This document shows, piece by piece, positions 11,121 through 62,040 of a DNA stretch of 64,000 nucleotides. The notes below the pieces were generated by a model. The model saw only the letters and a program-made list of their open reading frames with translations, searched no databases and was not told the DNA's origin. Origin of the DNA: Dissostichus eleginoides. Its lineage: Eukaryota. Numbering within the stretch: the first letter of the stretch is position 1; each line of letters begins with the position of its first letter. The stretch spans positions 26,420,913 to 26,484,912 of the forward strand of contig CM062274.1 in NCBI GenBank assembly GCA_031216635.1, written 5' to 3'. A program made the translations under genes and the position numbers.

Positions 11121-12717
11121 ATGAGTATTGAAATATTCAAGACGTGTACAATTATAACGTAAATATGAATGATGGGGATCAAATTAAAAACAGTAAAGTG
11201 CAGCAGAACAATTTATTAATGTTAATTCTATCAATCAGCTTCACATAAGGTTGTGATGGTTCCTACATCCACAAAACACAAGTCATCATTTGCTTTGCCT
11301 GTCGGTCGTCAGGTCACTGCAGTCAACTCTGATTATCCACACGGTCCTGATGTAGCAGATTAGCTGCTTTTTTCTAAATTAATCCCTCAATTGTTGGTTA
11401 TTTATTTATTATGCTCACGCTTATTCAATGTCATAGACAAAAACTGTAGGTCCAAGGGGCTTTTAAACAAAATATTAAAGGATGAAATCCATTAATAATG
11501 GCCATAATACATAAGCATAAACTAGGCTTAGGGGGTAGCTTTTAAATTCATCTTTAAAGATATCAACACTTTCAGCTGCTCATAGACCCTCCGGCAGGCT
11601 GTTCTAATAGCTCGAAGCACAAAAACTAAAAGCTTTTGCTTTTTGGAACAACTTGTGTGAGGGGACCTGGGGGCTTGTTTCATCAAAAATGCAGCCTACA
11701 ATTTGCAACATGAGATAATACCCTCCTATTATACTGTTCAGAACAAATTCAATATTCGGGATGCATGCATGAGCATGCAAGGAAAGTGTAGTGCTTGAAA
11801 ACATTTTCCACAATTTGCGAGTGGCAATCTTTTGCAAACTGCACACCCTGGGTTACACTTTGCAGGCATGTTAGACAAATCAGCTGGTTCAAGGCTACTG
11901 TGTGTAGTGCTTTATAAACTGGTCATATTATTTCAAAGAAGCAATATAAAACTGAAAGGCAACCCCTCTGTAAAGACTTTAAAATGCTTGCTCTCCATTT
12001 GGTCTCAAACAACACTCAGCAGGCCGCACACTTCTGAATCAATTGTTACTGATTCATGACTGAAGCTCGAGTGCTACATGCCAGACAGCTAAGATATCAC
12101 AGCTGGAATATGAATGAATGTCTTGACAATGTTCCTTCAGTAAACACATCCCGAAAACTGCTGTGCAAACTCAAAGGGAAGCGTAAAGTAATGAGAAAGT
12201 AATGACTCATATCTCCATTCAGCCTTTCCTCTGAATAAAGCGGACTCACTGTGTCACTTCTAAAAGGCTACTCGTAGACAGCTTAGATGGCGAGTTAGAA
12301 AAGGGCAGAATATCAAAGCCAACATGCGATCAGCTTTCTCTAAAGTAGTTCTAAAATTAAACGCATGGAGACACGACTCAAACTGAGGTGCTGTCTGCAG
12401 CAGCTGGAAGAGTCAAGGGGAAATAGCTAAGGTATCATTAGTAAATGAACAGTTTTGATCTTTATGAAAAGAAATTCCCGCAGGCTGCAGAGAATTATTA
12501 AGGGTTGGGAAGGTTTATCTAAGAGTAAAATTATACTTGGAATACAATGATTTCAAAGCCTCCTATCCTTGTGTCTGAGAGTGATTCAGAATATTCTTTT
12601 CTTTTATCATTGATCCTCTCATCTCTCTGCAGATTTTCAGAAGCTTTGGAGGTTTCTGGTACCTGATGACGCAACCGCTGGCAGACAGAAATGGCATCTG
12701 TGAAAATCCCCACTGGG

Positions 12718-12721
<4 letters not shown>

Positions 12722-12792
<71 letters not shown>
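12722..12792. repeat. (GT)n microsatellite
   Basis: Uninterrupted gt dinucleotide run of ~35 units. Confidence 0.95.
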
Positions 12793-24935: not shown

Positions 24936-25067
24936 GAAGATGCAGATCAAACAGGTTCTGCGTGTCAGCCGAGGAGTGGAGCTCCAGACGTTTAAGAGTG
25001 AGTTTGGGAACGTGAGGCCCCTGCTGCACTCCTCCAGCCCCAGCAACTTTGTTGGAGTCCTGTCTCG
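24936..25067 (+). CDS. parp4: parp4 exon 10 (start of PARP catalytic domain)
   Basis: Translation KMQIKQVLRVSRGVELQTFKSEFGNVRPLLHSSSPSNFVGVLSR (human ...LSKLGNVRPLLHGSPVQNIVGILCRG). The donor ctcg|gtgagc runs straight into a (CA)n tract. Confidence 0.88.
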
Positions 25068-25070
25068 GTG

Positions 25071-25144
<74 letters not shown>
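25068..25144. repeat. (CA)n microsatellite starting inside the parp4 exon 10 donor
   Basis: ctcg|gtgagcacacacacaca... about 36 units. ORFs 24852..25145 and 24919..25143 are repeat-translation artifacts. Confidence 0.95.
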
Positions 25145-39616: not shown

Positions 39617-39695
39617 TTTCTTCACAAGCTCACTGCGAGGGCCCTCATCAGGGATTACGAAGACGGAAGCCTGGATACCAATGAAGCCGAACATG

Positions 39696-39697
<2 letters not shown>
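39617..39697 (+). CDS. parp4: parp4 exon 27
   Basis: Translation FLHKLTARALIRDYEDGSLDTNEAEHE (human MIHKLAARALIRDYEDGILHENETSHE). The donor catgag|gtgtgt is the first repeat unit of a ~190 bp (GT)n tract. Confidence 0.9.
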
Positions 39698-39775
<78 letters not shown>

Positions 39776-39809
39776 TGTGTGTGTGTGTGTGGTGGTGTGT
39801 GTGTGTGTG

Positions 39810-39887
<78 letters not shown>
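39698..39887. repeat. Long compound (GT)n microsatellite starting at the parp4 exon 27 donor
   Basis: catgag|gtgtgtgtgt... about 190 bp with a few ggt/gtt interruptions. ORFs 39590-39981 on both strands are artifacts. Confidence 0.95.
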
Positions 39888-39890
<3 letters not shown>

Positions 39891-39962
39891 CAAAAGAAAC
39901 CTGCATCGCTTTAGACGTCTAGTCCCAGCTCCAGGTGTTAAACTGGACCTTTTTTGTTTCAG

Positions 39963-40159: not shown

Positions 40160-40318
40160 GACTCAGAACAACCAGAGGAAGGCTTTACAGACATCCCAAA
40201 GCTACTCGCCGAGGAAGATGTGGACTTCCTCCCCTACATGGGCTGGATTTCTCCTCAGGACAGTGAAGAGGAGGACTCTGAGGATTATTTGGAAAGGAGG
40301 AGGTCCAAATGCTTAATG
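40160..40318 (+). CDS. parp4: parp4 exon 29
   Basis: Translation DSEQPEEGFTDIPKLLAEEDVDFLPYMGWISPQDSEEEDSEDYLERRRSKCLM (human DENESPFPDIPKVSELIAKEDVDFLPYMSWQ). Donor aatg|gtaaagtcac. Confidence 0.88.
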
Positions 40319-40420
40319 GTAAAGTCACATTGTGCAATCAGGGGACAAGAAAAAAGCATCTTTACTTGTTATGATTTACTAATTGACAATATCCTTTCTG
40401 CCTTCGTCTCTCCGTTGTAG

Positions 40421-40480
40421 GAGTTTGGGTTCCAAGCAACCGCTGAGGATGACTCTGAAGAGATCTCTGATTGCTTAATG
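40421..40480 (+). CDS. parp4: parp4 exon 30 (duplicated mini-exon)
   Basis: Translation EFGFQATAEDDSEEISDCLM, with acceptor ccgttgtag| and donor aatg|gtaaagtcac. It belongs to a tandem exon+intron unit duplication, so its inclusion in mature mRNA is uncertain. Confidence 0.65.
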
Positions 40481-40582
40481 GTAAAGTCACATTGTTTAAT
40501 CGGGGGACAAGAAAAAGGCATCTTTACTTGTTATGATTTACTAATAGACAATATCCTTTCTGCCTTCGTCTCTCCGTTGTAG

Positions 40583-40873
40583 GAGTTTGGGTTCGAAGTG
40601 ACCGCTGAGGATGACTCTGGGGATGCTAAGGATGAGTCTGAGGATGAGTCTGAGGATGCTAAGGATGAGTCTGAGGATGAGTCTGAGGATGAGTCTAAGG
40701 ACTTGTCTAAGGATGAGTCTGAGGATGAGTTTGGGGATGCTAAGGATGAGTTTAAGGATGCTAAGGATGAGTCTGAGGATGCTAAGGATGAGTCTAAGGA
40801 TGCTAAGGATGAGTCTGAGGATGAGTCTGAGCCTCTGGTTGGATTAAAAAGTGATCCAATAATCCAAATGAAG
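40583..40873 (+). CDS. parp4: parp4 exon 31 (acidic octapeptide-repeat exon)
   Basis: Translation EFGFEVTAEDDSGDAKDESEDESEDAKDESEDESEDESKDLSKDESEDEFGDAKDEFKDAKDESEDAKDESKDAKDESEDESEPLVGLKSDPIIQMK. It carries 24-bp (DESEDAKD-type) repeats. The frame is confirmed by ORF 40598..40948. Confidence 0.8.
40617..40840 (+). repeat. parp4: Coding 24-bp tandem repeat (acidic DESEDAKD-like octapeptides) inside parp4 exon 31
   Basis: gatgagtctgaggatgctaag-type units repeated ~9 times with variants (gac ttg tct aag, gat gag ttt ggg/aag). Confidence 0.85.
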
Positions 40874-41453: not shown

Positions 41454-43351
41454 CATGGGTCCTCTCTGAGAAGAAGAGGGGACGTGGACAGATCGGCACC
41501 TTCAGCAGCGTGTGAACCCCCCATGCGTGATTTTGAAGTAGCACTACATTCTTTTGAAATGCATCAATTGGATGAAGAATTGCATTTGGATTCAGACTGC
41601 TCATTTCATCCTCCATCATCTCCTCCTTTCCACATGAAGGAACTCACCCAAAAACGTTCTTTCCGTGCGCCTCTCCCTCTGATCAGTGGTCTTCCAAGCC
41701 GCTCATTTCATCCTCATGGACTAATGGCAGCAGAAGTTCCCAGACGCCACGTCATCATGTTCGGTGCAACGCAAGCTGCAACTGACTCAGATGTGTCGAT
41801 GAAGATGAGCGATGATGGGCCTGAACCTCCTGTGACAGGGAAAGCATTTTCATTCTCAAGACAGAAAAAAGCACTCTCCTATTCTGCTCATTCACTTCAA
41901 TGCCAGTCAACCTCTCAAGACCCTCCAGCTCCCCCTCCTCCTACTCTTGGTCCAGCTCCTCCGCTAGCTGAAATTTTACTTGGCACTAATGCCATGTCGG
42001 ATCAGGTCAGTGAGTCACTGGTGGGACGCGCTTTCGGGAACAGAGCGCTATCAGCTTCCTATCAAACAGGAACCTCCTCTGGTCTCTGGGATGCAGGATT
42101 GTTTGCACCCCAGGAACGCAGCTCGAGTTTTGGATCTCCTGTGAAAGGTCAGTCAGGAGGGTTTTCCAGTAGTGCAGCATCTTTATTCTCCTCAGATCAA
42201 AGACAAAAAGGAAGCTTATTTTCTGATGAACTTGAAAGGGCAGGCTTTGGTCTCATGGGTTGTGCGCTTGAAGAAGAACCCGTTAGACAAGATCAGCCAA
42301 TGAAAGATGCCCCTCCTGTTTCACTTGATGAAGCATCAGATGTCGATGTAGAGCGACGTATGCACAAATCCACAGGTAGACCATTAGCAATGCTTGAAGA
42401 AGATGATCCCTCATGTGGAAGTTCTTGGGGAGGACTGGTCCACATGAAGGAACTCGCCCAAAAATCTCCTCTTCGTGTGCCACTCCCTCCGGGTGGTCGT
42501 CAAATTCCCTCATTTCATCCTCGAGAACAAATGGCAGCAGAAGTTCCCCAACGCCACAGCATCATGAACGGTGCAACGCGAGCTGCAACTGATTCAGATG
42601 TGATGATGATGATGAACGACCGTGCGCCTGAACCTCCTGTCACAGGGAAAGCATTTTCATACAGAAATGCACTGTCCTATTCTGCACATTCACTTCAACG
42701 CCAGTCCACCTCTCGAGACCCTCCAGCTCCCCCTCCTCCTACTCTTGGTTCAGCTCCTCCGCTAGCTGAAAGTTTACTTGGCACTAATGCCATGCCGGAT
42801 CAGGTCAGTGAGCAAATGGAATCACAAGCTCTCAGGATCAGAGCGCTATCACCTTCCTATCAAACAGGAATCTCCTCTGGTCTCTGGTCTGGACTCCAAA
42901 GCAGCTTGAGTTGTCCCACCTTTCCAGGTGCTATGAATATCCATGTCGGTGCGTCTGATTTGGATATGACAACTGAATGTGCGACTGAATCTCCTGTGAA
43001 AGGTCAGCCAGGAGGGTTTTCCAGGAGTGCATCATCTTTATTCTCCACAGCTCAGCTCTTATTTTCTGATGAACAAGAAATGGCAGGCTTTGGTCTCAGG
43101 GGTTGTGCGCTTGAAGGAAAACCCATTAGACAAGATCAGCCAATGAAAGATGCCCCTCCTGTTCCACTTGATGAAGCATCAGGTGTCCATGTAGAGCGAC
43201 GTAGGCACAAATCCAGAGGTAGAGCATTAGCAATGCCTGAAGAAGATGATCCCTCATGTGGAAGTTCTTGGGGAGGACTGCTCCCGCGTAAACGTGGGAT
43301 TGGTTTTTTAAAGGCCTCCAGGATGCGTCAATCAGCTGATCAACCATTTGA
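41454..43351 (+). CDS. parp4: parp4 exon 32 (1.9 kb exon with two ~270-aa tandem repeats; S/P-rich)
   Basis: Open frame 41454-43352 (ORF 41484..43355). Acceptor gtgttttttag|cat is in phase with exon 31. Two ~810 bp tandem copies (FHMKELTQK...SCGSSWGGL / VHMKELAQK...SCGSSWGGL). The proposed donor tttga|gtgagt at 43352 overlaps an in-frame TGA. Confidence 0.78.
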
Positions 43352-43682: not shown

Positions 43683-43749
43683 GAGGAAGTCAGCAGACCC
43701 TGAAGCGCTGAAGCTCAGATGGACAGAGATCTTCCAAATGCAGCATTCG
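43683..43749 (+). CDS. parp4: parp4 exon 33
   Basis: Translation (E)RKSADPEALKLRWTEIFQMQHS. Acceptor tcgtttcag|, donor attcg|gtaaga. It is in frame only with the 43352 donor of exon 32. Confidence 0.75.
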
Positions 43750-45221: not shown

Positions 45222-45324
45222 GAGGGTTACTGGCAGTTCACCGCAGAGCTGGGTGAGCTGATCAATTTGGATGTGGACCTATTCGCCAACGTGTTCCTGA
45301 AAAACAAAGGCATCCAGTCTCTGG
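45222..45324 (+). CDS. parp4: parp4 exon 34 (MVP-interacting region)
   Basis: Translation EGYWQFTAELGELINLDVDLFANVFLKNKGIQSLG (human EDGFWKLTPELGLILNLNTNGLHSFLKQKGIQSLG). Confidence 0.88.
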
Positions 45325-46204
45325 GTGAGGACTCTCAGAAACAGATGCAGCCTTTAGAGTGGGAATAGATTTGTCATTTCAGATCATTTCCACATCTTTC
45401 TGTGGCCAAAAGATTGGGTTTACACGTGGAGATAGAAGTATCATCGCCGAATAGTGCCAACATGTTCTTATTAAGTTTAATATAACCTTCCAAGCACTAT
45501 AATATTAACCAATCAGACGAGAATGTCCTATTTGTATTCATGAGTTTTTAGTTTTTAAATCATTAAGATGAGTTTCAAAATAACCTGTTAATGACTAAGT
45601 CTCTTTCCTTGTCAAAATATAAGAAAAAACACTTTGATTCAAAATATAACTCCTCTCTTTGGGGGTTCTATTAAAAGGTATTTACCAGTGAAAAGTTTAA
45701 TATTGAATGTAAAATCAGTATTCAAAGTAAGTAAGTTGCGAGAGCCATTACCAGTGTTAAAACTCAAGGGAGAAGAGAACAATAACCTCAAAACTGACAC
45801 ATTTTAGTGTGTGAAAAGGGAGACAATTGCAAACAATTATCATGCCATGCCTCTGCTTTGTAGAGACTTCAATCAAAAGCCACATTTTCCACTTTTCAGC
45901 ACAAGTATATTTCATGATAGTTTGGGTTATATTTGTCCAGGGTTTGAGATTAACATCTGCTTCACAATGGAGATGTAAGAGATGTTTTTGTGGGGCTCCA
46001 AGTGGAAAAATACACTTAAAAAAATGCAACTGTGACATCTCTGTCCACAATAAATGTGCCTGTCTTTCAGTTTTCATTGAGGACTCTCGCATAGTTGCAC
46101 TGCTTTTTCTTTTTTAAGTCTTACAGATATCTCAGCCATGATGATGAGTTTGTTTCCCACGGATGTTAAAAGCATGTACTGTACTTGTCTGTGTGTGTGT
46201 TTAG

Positions 46205-46337
46205 GTGTGAAGGCCCATGCAGACATCCTGAAGCTGGTGGCGACTCTGCTGGTTCTGCAGCTGATGAGAGAGGAGAAGATAGAGGAGGGCAAACTGCTCC
46301 GCACCCTCTTCTGCCTGGACGACTCCCCTCTGCCCAG
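46205..46337 (+). CDS. parp4: parp4 exon 35 (MVP-interacting region)
   Basis: Translation VKAHADILKLVATLLVLQLMREEKIEEGKLLRTLFCLDDSPLPR (human VKGRECLLDLIATMLVLQFIRTRLEKEGIVFKSLMKMDDPSISR). Confidence 0.88.
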
Positions 46338-47290
46338 GTCTGTCCAAAACTTAATCGAACAACATGAAGATCCTGAATAAAAACACCTAAACTGATTCAA
46401 AGCTTAAAGGCTTACACTGCAACCAAAGTACAAAGGTGTGAAAAGAGGAAATGTAACAGGAAGAGAAACACATCACAACACAACAAAGCATTTATCTCTC
46501 GAATCATAACCTTGAGATGCCCATTGACTTTAAACACTTAAATATGTTGTTCTCATTTGCAAAATATTCAATATTTATTGCAATGTTCTTCTCTGGGTGA
46601 TTAATTTTTTTGGTAAATGTTTTTATTGATTTTCTTTCTTTTGACAAAAGCAAGTGATACAGATTCAGTAAGGATATATACACATACACATGCTAACAAA
46701 TCTTAATTTCAATCCCACCACTCTCCCACCCACCACCCATTAACCCATTGAGTTACAGGATACAGAGCCCTTTAACAGTAAATACAGTGTTTTCATAATT
46801 ACACTAGTTCAAGGGGGGCAAAGAAGGAAGAAAAAAAAAAAAGCACAGAGATAAACACAAAGAAAGAAAATTATAATAATGATAATGGAATAGAAAGAGA
46901 AAGAGAAAAATTATGAATCATAATATATAAATATATATTAAATGCTCACCACTCAATCCAACCTTATTCTTTATCAAGTGGATCTTGTAAGGAGTCATAG
47001 AAGTCCAGAAAGGGTTTCCATGTTCTAATAAAGGTGTTAAGGAGCCCCTGAGTAAGAACTTAATTTTCTCTAACTGTAAGAAGTACATAACATCTTTGAC
47101 CCACTGAGAAAAGGATGGAGGGGAATGTTGCTTCCATTTTAGAAGAATCAAACGTCTCGCAAGAAGTGTAGAAAAGGCTATAACTACATGGGCACTGTTT
47201 GGTAGGGTCTGGGTGATTTTTTGAGACTAGCTGTCACTCTATCCAGAGTGGCAACCTGTTTTCATATCGACTTTCTTCTTCTTCCTCCAG

Positions 47291-47561
47291 GCCTGAGCGT
47301 TGGGAGGAGGTGAAGAGGGCGGTGGACTGGGTCTGCTGGGCGGACCGGCAGTACCCGTGTGTCTACAGCCGGCTGGAGTTTGGATTCAGCTGGGAGTCCT
47401 CCACCCGCCAGCTGCTGGGCTTCGAAGGCCTCCCTCCCTTCTCCGCTCTCAGGGGGCTGAACCTGCAGAAGACCGTCCCCAGGTCCTGGTCCACTGAGCA
47501 GGATAGTGAGAGGGAGGTTCATACCCCTTTGCCTTTTTATGGGGATTACATAATCTATTAG
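47291..47561 (+). CDS. parp4: parp4 terminal coding exon 36 (stop TAG 47559-47561)
   Basis: Translation (R)PERWEEVKRAVDWVCWADRQYPCVYSRLEFGFSWESSTRQLLGFEGLPPFSALRGLNLQKTVPRSWSTEQDSEREVHTPLPFYGDYIIY* (human NIPWAFEAIKQASEWVRRTEGQYPSICPRLELGNDWDSATKQLLGLQPIS). Frame matches ORF 47310..47561. Confidence 0.82.
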
Positions 47562-50155: not shown

Positions 50156-50225
50156 ATGGAGGAAATCTATCTCAACCTTGACGATGTCAAACCCCTAAGC
50201 TCAAGATCATCAACAAAACAAGAAG
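50156..50225 (+). CDS. C-type lectin gene 1, exon 1 (cytoplasmic tail)
   Basis: Translation MEEIYLNLDDVKPLSSRSSTKQE, ATG at 50156, donor gaag|gtaagg. The paralogous exon sits at 61601. Confidence 0.8.
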
Positions 50226-50297
50226 GTAAGGGTCAGTCAGACAGAGTGAGCTGTGGATTTTGGATTTATTATACTCCCTGGTTTTCTCTGTGTTCAG

Positions 50298-50387
50298 GTC
50301 CCAGCAGATTTCCCCCAGCGTCTGTTCTCGGTCTGGGGCTGCTGGTTGTTTTCCTGCTGGCTGGACTCATCGGCCTCGCTGTCCACC
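50298..50387 (+). CDS. C-type lectin gene 1, exon 2 (transmembrane segment)
   Basis: Translation GPSRFPPASVLGLGLLVVFLLAGLIGLAVH is a hydrophobic signal-anchor typical of type II C-type lectin receptors. Donor cacc|gtgagt. Confidence 0.8.
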
Positions 50388-50605
50388 GTGAGTCTTATTT
50401 TTAATATATATATTATATTAGTTTCATAAGTCATTTTGAACGTGTGATTTTAAGGAGCAATATTCTGCTCTGAAAGATGCACATTTGACCAAAACATCTA
50501 TTGTTTTTCTATTTTTCTCCTAGGGCGAAAGTAGATAACATTCACTTTGGTTTGTGTCAGTCGGATTGCATCAGGTAATTTAAGAAACATCTTTTTTCAT
50601 TTCAG

Positions 50606-50793
50606 ACCATAACTCAGTAGGTGGCGCAGCTGCAGATCTCTCCGCTGTCAAAGCAAACCTGACGTTTGACGTGAGCGTCTCCAGGCCAGAGATCAGCTGC
50701 TCTACTCAGTGACTGAAGAGAGAGACAGACTGAATGCCAACCTCACTGAAAAGACCAGAGAGGTTGACAGGCTTCAGAGTTTGTCCAAACAGA
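50606..50793 (+). CDS. C-type lectin gene 1, neck exon (frame-inconsistent; possible internal acceptor at 50710)
   Basis: Homologous to the lectin-2 neck exon, with a single ...LQARDQL...NANLTEKTREVDRLQSLSKQ unit. Using the canonical acceptor cattcag|acc gives an in-frame TGA at 50710. Only the internal acceptor ctactcag|tg restores the frame shared with the donor caga|gtgagt. Confidence 0.5.
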
Positions 50794-51439
50794 GTGAGTG
50801 CTTTTCTATGACGGTTTTGCACAGGGCTGGGCAATATGGATTATATCAATTGTCATGATATTTTTGAGCAAATACCTCAATATTGCATCGATATTCTAAG
50901 GTTGGCAATTGCTCCTTTGAAATAATAACATGAGCGTACCAGAGAATGTCATTGGAAATGTTATAATGTGATTGAACAAAGATATAATGCAAACTTAAAA
51001 AGGTCAAAGACAAAAGATGTTACACTCTACAATGATGTCTTCATACTAGCGTGTTGTCTTTTCATAAAAATATGAAAAGATAACATGCCAACTTACTATA
51101 TGATGAAATCCAAAGTTCAACAAACTTATCTATTATTGTTGGACAATATCAATATATTGCCAAACCCTTCTGCATAAAAGTGTAGAACACCTTATTTTAC
51201 TCTCAGCACCTTTTCTTCACTCTCTGTTAATTTAATCATACATTTTTTTTATGTGTACAGCCCTTTAAAAAAAATCTTAGTAACATCATTTTAAAAGCTA
51301 AAAAGCTTCAGTCCCATCACTTCACATAATTATAAGATTGTGAATAACTAAATATCTCTTTATTAGGATGTTTTAAAAATGTTGACACCTTGTATTCTGC
51401 ACATTTTTAACTGCTCTCTTTTTATAGGTTCTGTCCCTG

Positions 51440-51840
51440 AAACTGCGCTGGTTCAGCCATTTCTAAAAAAGCCCTCACTTGATTCCCCATTCTTAAACAT
51501 TTTAGACATATTTCCAAGCTCCCATTTTTAGATAAAGTTTTAGAAAAAACTGTAGCAGAATAATTGTTAGCTTTTATCAATGACAACAATATTTTAGAGA
51601 AATTCTAATCTGGCTTTAGAAAAATTCATAGTACTGAAACGGCTCTTTTTGAAGTTTTTAATGACTTGTGTGATTTTATTTGTAGGCTTATTATATTTAT
51701 TTTCTATGTGTTTTTATGTTTACATGCTGTTGTTTAATTATCTAGCTCACCGTGTATTTTTATGTTAGAGCACTTTGTAACTGTGTTTTGAAAGGTGCTA
51801 TATAAATAAAGTGTATTATTATTATTATTATTATTTATAT
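51440..51840 (+). mobile_element. Second copy of the non-LTR 3' fragment family (in lectin-1 intron)
   Basis: Ends ...ttagagcactttgtaactgtgttttgaaaggtgctatataaataaagtgtattattattattattattt (tail + (TTA)n). Confidence 0.45.
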
Positions 51841-52222
51841 GGTGATCTACAAGATATATTTCCCAGGAATGTTTTTTATATCATCTTCCTTTTTTGATGT
51901 CATGTCAGTCAAAATTACCGCCTTTATTGCAGTATTTTTTTACTTGATTCATTAAGCAATTGGACTTATAGTACCGAGTAAGGAATCATAACAGACTCTT
52001 AAAATGATGCAGAGTGAGAGAAGTTTTATCCTTTGTCCCATGCAATGATACCGGTCTATCAGAATAGATCTTGGCTACCATCAACAATGCTTATTGAATA
52101 TGTATTTTTCAAAATCACACAAGGGACAAGAATGCTCTAAGAGTTGAATATTTCAGCAAGGAGTCAACTAAATCTTACAACTCAAAAGAAGGTAATAAGG
52201 CATGTCTTGTGTTTTTTTGCAG

Positions 52223-52365
52223 AGAAAACGTGTCCTGCAGGATGGAGGATGGTCGGTTGTGTCTGTTATCTCCTCTCTACGGGGAAAGCTTCATGGGAAC
52301 AAAGCAGACAAAACTGCAGAGCCAGAGGAGCAGATCTGGTGATCGTAGACAGTAATGAAGAACAG
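52223..52365 (+). CDS. C-type lectin gene 1, CTLD exon A
   Basis: Translation KKTCPAGWRMVGCVCYLLSTGKASWEQSRQNCRARGADLVIVDSNEEQ (CTLD CPxGW...CY...W..S...C...GA.L..I.S.EEQ). Frame matches ORF 52144..52437. Confidence 0.85.
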
Positions 52366-53939
52366 GTAATGTGTGCTGCTTTAACAATTTATTGTTTTAC
52401 TTATCTGAATCATATACAGAATATAAAGGTTCTTTAATTGAATAGGTGCCAATGTATATTGAATAATTAAAATTAACAAAACTTTGATTTTATATTTTTT
52501 ATATGGTGGTTTTATCTATCATTTAGCTTATTTATTACTTATCTACTTCACAGCTGTGTGTTATCGTTACTGGCTTTTATGCACAATGAGTTATTTTACT
52601 TTTGATACTTCAAGTTTATTTTTATGCTAATACTTTAGTGTTTAAGTACAAATGTTCCCAAAGATGACCACACCCCTTTGTACTACACTGCGTTCAATTG
52701 TGTTTTTATTGCATGCTTTTATGTGTATCTTTCATACGTATCATTTAGATTAGATTACAAAAATGAAATGTATGATTTATGTGTAACGACTGAATGAACA
52801 CCAGTAGAGGACTCAATAGTGTTGTGTTCAAAATTCCAGGAAAGACAGACAACTTCTAAGTTTAACTATTTATTATAAGAGAGCAAAATATATATATTCA
52901 CTTGGCCAAGGACTCCGTCACGTCATAGAAATCACAGGCAGCAAAGCTGTAATCTGTAACCTTGGTTTAGACTTTGGCTCTCTCTTGTTGGTACACAGAC
53001 TCAGATAAGGTCTCTTGGCAACACGACCTTCCAATCAGCATTCGGCCGGCCGGCGAAGTCCCTCCCTATACTATCCGCTATCCTAGTAATTTGTTTTCAC
53101 TAAAGCTGCTTTGCAGGCATATAGTGGAATCCTTCATTTACACTGCTTCCTAGCTATGCGTGGGTGCGAAGCTCCCATACAACTCGAGGCCGGAGCGATG
53201 TCCTGTGTATGAATAACTCTTTGTATGCTTCCAGTGTCTGCACCTGACCTTGCTACTCTGTATTGCAGGCTAAAACTTTCTTATGTGACTTTTCCCTTCG
53301 TTTCCTATACAATCCATCAAACCTTGGGATTGGTGATTTTGTCTATTTATTCCAAAGTCACATCAACATAAAATGAGCACAATAAGCTTATAATGTAATA
53401 ATAAGAATCAGTCTTTCTAATGTTATACAAAAATAGACTCCACAATAGCACGACTCAGGGACAGAGGCTTAGGTTGCAAAAAGGTCTTTATAGCAGAGGC
53501 TCGGCACACGGGAGATCAGTCAGTAAGGCAACCAAAACAGGTGAGGATTAGGCAGGAACAGGGTCAGGACACGAAGCTGGGTCAGGTACACGTGGAAACA
53601 AGATACTAGTAGGAATAAACACTGCTGGAATGCTAGGAATAACAAAGACGAACTGGCACTGAGGGGAATGTGGACGCAGACTAAATAGACAGGGGGAGGG
53701 ATGATAATGGGGCACAGGTGAGGCTAATTAGGGATGGGAAGCAGGTGGAGTTCAATCAAGGGCAAGAAAGCTGAAACTGAAATGAGAGAAACAAAATAAA
53801 AACAGGAATACTGTAATAACAAAAACATCAACATGCTGGCTAGGGCCTTACATTATGTCTGAGTTAGTTAGAAGGGAATAGTTATCCGAATGTCGATGTT
53901 GATCCCTGTAAACTTCATTTATAATATGTTTAAGACTAA

Positions 53940-57680: not shown

Positions 57681-58850
57681 ATGGATAACCTCGCATCACT
57701 AACCGCCAACATAGCACAGATGGGACATCAACTCAACCTGGTTTCAACTCATCTTACTCCGCCTGCTCCTGAGGATCCAGCTCCCCCACAAGAGTTAGCA
57801 CCGGTTCCAGCCCAGCCCGCTCTCCCTTCACGTGAGCCAAATATTCCCACTCCAGAGCGGTACGCAGGTGCCTTAGGGACATGTAAGTCTTTCTTAATGC
57901 AGTGTTCTCTTGTCTTTGAGCAGCAGCCGTCTACTTATGCTAACGACAGAGCTAAGATTTGTTATATGATAGGTTTACTTACGGGTAGCGCCCTAGCCTG
58001 GGCATCAGCTGTATGGGAGAGTCAGTCCAACCTTTGTAATTCTTATCCAGAGTTTGCAGAGGAAATGAAGAAAGCATTCCACCACCCCGTCAGCGGTAGG
58101 GACGCTACTAAACGCCTCCTCTCACTGCGACAGGGCTCCCGTAGTGTAGCCGAATACTCAGTGGAATTTAGGACCTTAGCTGCAGAGGCGGGTGGAATGA
58201 CACAGCGCTTCAAGGGGTTTTTCCAACAGGGCTAACTGATTCTGTTAAGGATGAGTTAGCAGTGAGGGACGAATCAGCTAACTTGGATGAGTTGGTCTCC
58301 CTAGCCATAAGACTGGATAACCGCCTTAGGGAGCGACGTAGGGAAAGAGCCAGCCGATCTCCTGGGTCACTCCCCTCTCGCCCTGTCTCGTCTCCTCTCG
58401 CAAGATTCAGGTCGGAAACTTTCCCAAGTCCCAGTGCCCCATCTGAATTATTTTCTCCTCTCCTGTCTTCAGAGGAACCGATGCAGCTAGGCAGAGCCCG
58501 ACTCACTCCCCAAGAACGTCTCCGGAGAATAAGAGAAGGACTTTGTGTCTACTGTGCTCACTCCGGTTCGTGGACAAATGCCCCCAGCGCCCAAAAGAGG
58601 GTGCTCGCCAGTAAAGGTGGGGATACTGGTGAGCAAGGCTGTTTCTTCCTCAACCCCCCAGACCTGCAAGCCACTTGGAGCCACACTGTTGTTAAACCAA
58701 CAGTCTCTCACTCTGCCTGCCCTAGTGGACTCTGGGGCTGATGAGAGCTTTTTGGATGCCCAACTGTGGCTCTGCAGCAGGTTTACTCGACATTGTCGCC
58801 GTTTCTCAATGTCGAGTAAACCTGCTGCAGAGCCACTATTTCAAGTATAG
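57681..58850 (+). mobile_element. Ty3/gypsy-type LTR retrotransposon fragment (gag + start of protease, frameshifted)
   Basis: ORF 57681..58235 is a retrotransposon Gag-like sequence (…[18 protein letters not shown]…). ORF 58262..58741 contains a zinc-knuckle-like [11 protein letters not shown] 58545..58850 contains the aspartic protease motif [10 protein letters not shown]. The three run in different frames and truncate before RT, so the element is decayed. Confidence 0.7.
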
Positions 58851-61600: not shown

Positions 61601-61670
61601 ATGGAGGAAATCTATGCCAATGTTGACGATGTCATATCCCTAAGCTCAAGATCATCAACAATACAAGAAG
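61601..61670 (+). CDS. C-type lectin gene 2, exon 1 (cytoplasmic tail)
   Basis: Translation MEEIYANVDDVISLSSRSSTIQE is the paralog of 50156-50225 and sits in the same promoter context. Confidence 0.8.
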
Positions 61671-61743
61671 GTAAGAGTGTCAGTCAGAGTGCACTGTGGA
61701 TTTTGGATTTATTGTATTACTCCCTGGTCTTCTCTGTGTTCAG

Positions 61744-61833
61744 GTCCCAGGAGATTTCCCCCAGCGTCTGTTCTCGGTCTGGGGCTGCTGGGTGTTTTCC
61801 TGCTGGCTGGACTCATCGGCCTCGCTGTCCACT
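61744..61833 (+). CDS. C-type lectin gene 2, exon 2 (transmembrane)
   Basis: Translation GPRRFPPASVLGLGLLGVFLLAGLIGLAVH, donor cact|gtgagt. Confidence 0.8.
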
Positions 61834-62040
61834 GTGAGTCTTTCTTTTAATACGTTTAATAATGTCATTTTGAACGTGTGATTTTCAAGAGTAATATTCT
61901 GCTCTGAAAGATGCACATTTGACCAAAACATCTATCGTCTTTCTACTTTTCTCCAAGGGCCAAATTAGGAAAACATTGACCATGGTTTGTGTCAGTATGA
62001 TTGCATCAGGTAATTTAAGAAACATCTATTTTCATTCCAG

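Follow-up and report, generated by a model that had tools for sequence, protein, structure and literature searches.

The closest described system is exon 30 of human PARP4, the largest exon of that gene, which evolves under positive selection and varies in length (Daugherty et al. 2014, PMC4038475). Its human–rhesus dN/dS is 1.75, positive selection on it is found in primates, bats and other vertebrates, and both its length and its sequence differ from one vertebrate to another, a few conserved residues being kept (PMC4038475); the hypothesis has been put forward that the encoded segment interacts with pathogen factors (Daugherty et al., PMC4038475). The equivalent segment of the human protein has been described as an intrinsically disordered linker that holds the positively selected sites (PMC10450202), and cryo-EM places the anchored PARP4 C-terminus at the vault waist, from where the chain extends into the lumen (PMC12280208). 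Here, we analyzed a 64,000-nt stretch of the genome of Dissostichus eleginoides (hereafter, the window) and compare an internally duplicated exon found in it with this system. We consider it probable, if well short of certain, that the largest PARP4 exon underwent an ancient in-frame, head-to-tail duplication of ~270 codons in the disordered tether between the protein body and the MVP anchor, and that this region has been kept translatable, with dN/dS at or above 1.

Plus-strand open reading frame (ORF) fragments of the window match, in this order, the BRCT (16.5 kb; E 1e-3, a fragment under the cutoff), PARP (26.9 kb; E 3e-10, over the cutoff), VIT (30.7 kb) and vWA (34.8 kb) domains of Pfam. 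Downstream, four exons are 98–100% identical to Trematomus and Dissostichus proteins bearing the MVP-interaction domain (MVP-ID), for which Pfam PF26156 (PARP4_MVP-ID; human PARP4 residues 1570–1724) served as the reference, and the encoded C-terminus aligns with human PARP4 1572–1715 in PDB entries 9bw6, 9bw7 and 11jf (E 7e-30). By its domain order and C-terminal MVP-ID, the host gene is PARP4, the vault poly-ADP-ribose polymerase. The four MVP-ID exons, located by tblastn with the C-termini of the Trematomus and Dissostichus proteins, lie on the plus strand at 43683–43749 and, with approximate ends, at ~45222–45326, ~46204–46338 and ~47289–47561. In the last of them, the C-run at 47476–47479 has four Cs in the window versus five in four other notothenioid loci, which shifts the frame five codons ahead of the stop, so that the product reads ...TVPRSWSTEQ... 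up to 47561 and not ...TVPQVLVH-stop; this is either a genuine variant or an error of sequencing.

The exon of interest (41454–43351, plus strand; 1898 nt) is the largest of the gene and lies between the ITIH-like region (VIT and vWA) and the MVP-ID, fourth from last, with four exons after it. It begins in phase 0 behind an acceptor with a polypyrimidine tract and AG (...TTTTTTAG|), is open without a stop across 632 codons, and ends in a split codon, GA|G, at the donor |GTGAGT; in the ORF listing, it is the longest plus-strand ORF of the window. Joined to the exon at 43683, the GA|G junction reads ...QPF-E-RKSADPE, identical in the Trematomus and Dissostichus proteins. The preceding exon (40583–40873, plus strand; 97 codons; acceptor ...ccgttgtag|, donor |GTAATG) codes for acidic AKDESEDESED repeats and is in phase 0 at both ends, so that the frame continues into the large exon.

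As in human, the largest PARP4 exon is thus followed by four small exons of the MVP-ID, codes for disordered sequence linking the ITIH-like region to this domain, and varies in length and sequence around islands of conserved residues; the dN/dS of 1.75 for the human exon compares with 1.7 between the two fish units described below and 2.75 between unit 1 of the window and of Trematomus. Human PARP4 outside exon 30 is under purifying selection, a feature for which the fish comparison covers the C-terminal exons only. The fish exon differs in that its length change is the tandem duplication of a whole module of ~270 codons, the copies of which then diverged and were partly converted, and in having no detectable sequence similarity to the human segment: a profile of the unit, searched against PDB sequences including full-length human PARP4, gave chance matches only. 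Such a lack of similarity is expected for a hypervariable segment, and it is by position that the large exon would correspond to human exon 30.

Several other features of the window were recorded in passing. The introns of PARP4 contain long (CA/TG)n microsatellites (12600–12760, 24990–25140 and 39650–39900), which are typical of teleost genomes. On the 3' side of PARP4 are C-type lectin-like genes (50156–52437 and 61601–61837, with a Lectin_C fragment), two of which have similar first exons beginning MEEIY.N.DDV; PARP4 has a C-type lectin-like neighbor in the loci of Dissostichus and Zoarces as well. Among the lectin genes, at 57681–58850, there are gag ORFs of a Ty3/gypsy-type retrotransposon (Retrotrans_gag, Ty3_capsid, DUF4939).

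Most of the large exon is taken up by unit 1 (41628–42437; 810 nt, 270 aa, FHMKEL...SSWGGL) and unit 2 (42438–43280; 843 nt, 281 aa, VHMKEL...SSWGGL), as delimited by codon alignment, which abut head-to-tail without a spacer and are both open in the exon frame. They are preceded by an unduplicated 5' part (41454–41627, HGSSLRRRGD...CSFHPPSSPP), without a second copy in the self-alignment, and followed by an unduplicated 3' tail (43281–43351, LPRKRGIGFLKASRMRQSADQPF-). A direct-repeat search found five collinear blocks between 41629–42441 and 42439–43284, at 84–93% identity and a spacing of 798–855 nt. When the exon was compared with itself by blastn, two matches were obtained (41629–42089 versus 42439–42887, 84.6%, 509 bits; 42131–42441 versus 42986–43284, 88.4%, 406 bits), whereas the top off-diagonal match in 30 shuffled controls was at most 30 bits. 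The direct repeats, self-blastn and codon alignment agree on the tandem duplication of ~810 bp within a coding exon of ~1.9 kb that had been claimed in a sequence-only reading of this DNA, down to the off-diagonal at an offset of ~800–855 nt and, by codon alignment and ORF check, the common frame of the two copies. The identity of ~80% that was given there for the units needs correction: we measured 85% at the nucleotide level (669/786) and 72% at the amino acid level (188/262 aligned positions; 65% with gaps), so that ~80% falls between the two. TRF did not report the ~810-nt repeat because its longest period is 500.

Between the two blastn matches, a divergent core (42090–42130 versus 42888–42985) could not be aligned between the units. 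The unit 2 segment at 42888–42985 (...SCPTFPGAMNIHVGASDLDMTTECAT...), which has no alignable counterpart in unit 1, is found in both units of the icefish and partly in unit 1 of Trematomus and is absent from unit 1 of the window and of Dissostichus, a distribution that makes its loss from unit 1 the most likely history. The minus-strand ORFs at 42283–42513 (76 aa) and 43126–43347 (73 aa), which had been taken to confirm the duplication, are indeed present as mirror images of one another; they arise as by-products of it, without evidence that either is a gene. Because the homology shared at the breakpoints is at most TCC, the mechanism is inferred and not demonstrated: unequal exchange or replication slippage at such very short homology would have generated the duplication. 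An origin from a transposon or minisatellite is ruled out by the presence of only two copies, both coding and without terminal repeats.

Exon 40583–40873 itself consists of 21/33-nt tandem repeats (40604–40831), which code for the AKDESEDESED-type acidic runs, so that this stretch of PARP4 contains three different internal repeats. A 162-bp tandem repeat lies at 40310–40619 (1.9 copies, 94%), and each copy of it includes a donor GTAAAG, an intron of ~100 nt, the acceptor ccgttgtag and an exon start. This repeat could provide an extra in-phase mini-exon of 60 nt (40421–40480, EFGFQATAEDDSEEISDCLM) just 5' of the acidic-repeat exon, and Dissostichus locus L001 appears to hold one copy more.

Protein databases gave few matches to the large exon. 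A word-indexed protein search with the whole exon yielded similar proteins only from Trematomus bernacchii and Dissostichus mawsoni, and among the 1.84 billion representatives searched with a HMMER profile of the unit, only the Trematomus protein was matched. With only two and one protein matches, respectively, these databases were uninformative on the copy number in other fishes, and DNA was compared instead. The orthologous DNA was retrieved via the conserved C-terminal domain, for which a protein search returned short fragments only and no full-length PARP4. The window is collinear with loci of Dissostichus (introns ~2% divergent), Trematomus (3–6%) and the icefish Champsocephalus esox (6–8%), which by itself places it in a notothenioid close to Dissostichus, and the two-unit layout is present in five loci from four assemblies, namely the window, two Dissostichus scaffolds, Trematomus and Champsocephalus.

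The outgroup sample consisted of Zoarces (eelpout) and Pungitius (stickleback). At the same position, the orthologous exon encodes 335 aa in Zoarces and 348 aa in Pungitius; neither exon gave a tblastn match to the units, and each had one weak match to the unit profile, at the GFG..QDxPM..PPVPL island near the 3' end of the exon. In the comparison with orthologous exons that the sequence-only reading had proposed for dating the event, the notothenioids have two units, and eelpout and stickleback a single-length exon; judged by these exons, the duplication occurred after the lineages of eelpout and stickleback had branched off. The exon of Pungitius sinensis carries its own tandem array, a 66-bp repeat in 5.2 copies (...ALSFVPPPPPPFQGSLEQPQP...; L005 8988–9332), and the fragments recovered from poeciliids (GAPPPP runs) and salmonids consist of unrelated sequence with their own proline-rich repeats, which indicates that internal repetition of this exon recurs across teleosts. 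The Pungitius and poeciliid cases resemble the notothenioid one in that the same exon grew by proline-rich tandem repetition; they differ in that motifs of 6–22 aa are present in several copies, whereas in notothenioids, a near-whole module of 270 aa was repeated once, and the copies are old and diverged.

The two units can be told apart in all species with the two-unit layout, unit 1 by F-HMKEL, HPHGL and SESLVGRAFGNR, and unit 2 by V-HMKEL, HPREQ, MMMMND and SEQMESQALRIR. In the tree of the 5' third of the units, the unit-1 group was separated from the unit-2 group in 300/300 bootstraps. This tree indicates a single ancestral duplication, in the common ancestor that the window species shares with D. 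mawsoni, Trematomus and Champsocephalus. A clean split between the two groups was recovered in only 35/200 cases in the all-column NJ tree because of gene conversion in the icefish, which was seen on partitioning of the alignment. In columns 600–825, the two icefish units (C1 and C2) were sisters in 300/300 bootstraps and differed at 10/225 sites, versus 28/153 and 29/213 for the orthologous pairs (p=1e-5 and 6e-4); on the evidence of these columns, the units underwent one episode of gene conversion in the icefish lineage. Further candidates, in Trematomus (columns 225–450) and at the 3' end of the window units, were not significant (p=0.18–0.63) and were rejected. The dS between the two window units is 0.11 (0.126 in the first 155 aligned codons), which exceeds the window–Trematomus dS (0.035–0.07) and is close to the window–icefish dS (0.15). 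These values fit a duplication shortly before the radiation or an earlier one with some homogenization.

The description of the units as S/P/A-rich was borne out, with S+P+A+G accounting for 41% and disorder-promoting residues for 62% of the composition; the phospho-regulation called likely in the sequence-only reading is not supported, S/T-P sites numbering only 1 and 3 per unit. In the Uversky charge–hydropathy plot, which was not decisive and is not counted as support, the units did not fall on the disordered side. The AF2 model of the two-unit Trematomus protein had a pLDDT of 31–62 and no secondary structure over both units, where the alignment is shallow, and the adjacent MVP-ID was predicted to be helical, with a pLDDT of 70–96. 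Part of the low pLDDT over the units may come from that shallowness. Together with the description of the human equivalent in such terms (PMC10450202), the model supports the prediction, made already from the sequence, that both units form an intrinsically disordered linker.

Several explanations compete with an old, translated duplication. That the assembly falsely expanded a single unit, or stacked two haplotypes in tandem, can be discounted almost entirely: the copies differ by 15% and several indels, and both units, along with the residues that distinguish them by position, recur in four other loci, in independent assemblies of three other species. We also regard it as very improbable that unit 2 or the whole exon is non-coding and undergoing pseudogenization, or that one unit is spliced out as an internal intron, even though some observations would fit decay. 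Both D. mawsoni copies (L001 ~9855, L006 ~8790) lack 1 nt of the A-run where unit 2 begins, which breaks the frame and explains the truncated Dissostichus gene model. These copies are on different scaffolds, 0.1–0.7% apart, which could be either paralogs or haplotigs, and each has further 1–2-nt indels; the indels sit in homopolymer runs of a long-read assembly, which speaks against decay, and the frameshift is either an assembly error or a real loss. The Trematomus bernacchii protein LOC117481322 omits ILLGSN...GQSGW of unit 1, which the genome encodes (L002 10340–10580). Yet the intron that this model implies is non-canonical (TT..AT) and coincides with a genuine deletion of 243 nt in unit 2, so that a read-mapping artefact is suspected; the gap is probably an annotation artefact, caused by cross-mapping of unit-2 reads because of the repeat. 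The shortened C-run of the last exon, by which the final residues are altered in the window, could be counted on the same side. Against decay, all 632 codons are open in the window, the exon is open in Trematomus and Champsocephalus as well, and the indels that distinguish the window exon from that of Trematomus are all multiples of 3 (10/10, 3–243 nt, including the 243-nt deletion in Trematomus unit 2), compared with 3/9 in the flanking introns, the chance probability of the exon pattern being ~2e-5.

A larger share of doubt, although still the lesser one, goes to neutral expansion, a change in length without consequence for selection, in a disordered tether that can accommodate almost any sequence, with constraint limited to the reading frame, through which the MVP-ID anchor is reached, and to a few motifs; dN/dS values near or above 1 would then reflect relaxed constraint and noise. 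The kept frame is simply accounted for by the translation of the downstream anchor domain, and other fishes have unrelated sequence with their own repeats at this position. Large in-frame deletions were tolerated in either unit: besides the deletion in Trematomus unit 2, the icefish lost ~144 nt of unit 1 and the end of unit 2, which implies that neither copy is needed intact. By NG86, dN/dS was 1.1–6.8 in 10 of the 11 unit comparisons, which are mutually non-independent, and 7 of them, with values of 1.1–1.6, were not significant; the icefish pair C1–C2, affected by gene conversion, had a value of 0.83. With most values individually non-significant, the pattern could stem in large part from relaxed constraint, and these values and the large unit losses make neutrality plausible. 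Against neutrality, however, three comparisons are significantly above 1, namely those between the two window units (1.71, p=0.017), between unit 1 of the window and of Trematomus (2.75, p=0.004) and between unit 1 of Dissostichus and of Trematomus (6.8, p<0.001), and dN in the second of these (0.095) exceeds both dS (0.035) and the divergence of the introns (0.03–0.06), which would not be predicted under pure neutrality. Divergence in the units outpaces that in their own introns (JC 0.08 versus 0.03–0.06 to Trematomus, 0.16–0.18 versus 0.06–0.08 to the icefish), their dS matches the introns, and the exon part that diverges fastest between species is the unduplicated 41454–41627 (JC 0.19 to Trematomus versus introns 0.03–0.06). 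The sole within-gene control, the MVP-ID exons, differs between the window and Trematomus by 3 changes, all of them synonymous. Neutrality is also at odds with motif islands that are invariant across all seven aligned units and with the robust positive selection on the same exon in primates and bats (PMC4038475).

Under the preferred explanation, an old duplication kept in frame, the alignments show copies that have since diverged by amino-acid-changing substitutions and many in-frame indels, both being kept translatable as far as their reading frames attest. The tether from the ITIH-like body to the C-terminal MVP anchor would have roughly doubled in length, giving two independently evolving copies of one set of short conserved motifs (EPPVTGKAFS, DPPAPPPPTLG, SPVKGQxGGFS and GFGLxGCALE..QDQPMKDAPPV), and the surface that was hypothesized to interact with pathogen factors (Daugherty et al.) would thereby have been duplicated. 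An adaptive extension, in which the ancestor of Antarctic notothenioids doubled a positively selected, pathogen-facing disordered module, strikes us as unlikely. Were it true, each vault-bound PARP4 would present two independently diversifying recognition surfaces, analogous to the copy-number expansion of antiviral specificity determinants, and the later in-frame indels and gene conversion would represent ongoing arms-race dynamics.

Internal duplication is not mentioned in PMC4038475, and among the papers searched, none links PARP4 with notothenioids; the duplication thus appears to be a lineage-specific, previously unreported case of the known hypervariability of the largest PARP4 exon. Compared with generic intragenic tandem duplications in disordered regions, with which it shares the head-to-tail arrangement without a spacer, the kept frame, the in-frame indels and gene conversion, we found no mechanistic difference; only its location, at a proposed host–pathogen interface, is special, and beyond the context of PARP4, it is an ordinary intragenic event. 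This context, which the sequence-only reading missed together with the identity of the gene, explains the finding and lends it weight: few disordered regions show recurrent positive selection as clearly as the one encoded by the largest PARP4 exon, which is also a proposed vault-based surface for pathogen recognition. On the practical side, the repeat accounts for broken or odd PARP4 gene models in notothenioid annotations. For the biology of the family, notothenioids offer natural variants of the module, in one-and-a-half-unit, two-unit and converted forms, which has stayed in frame throughout the radiation of these species, and the invariant motif islands point to short linear motifs of importance.
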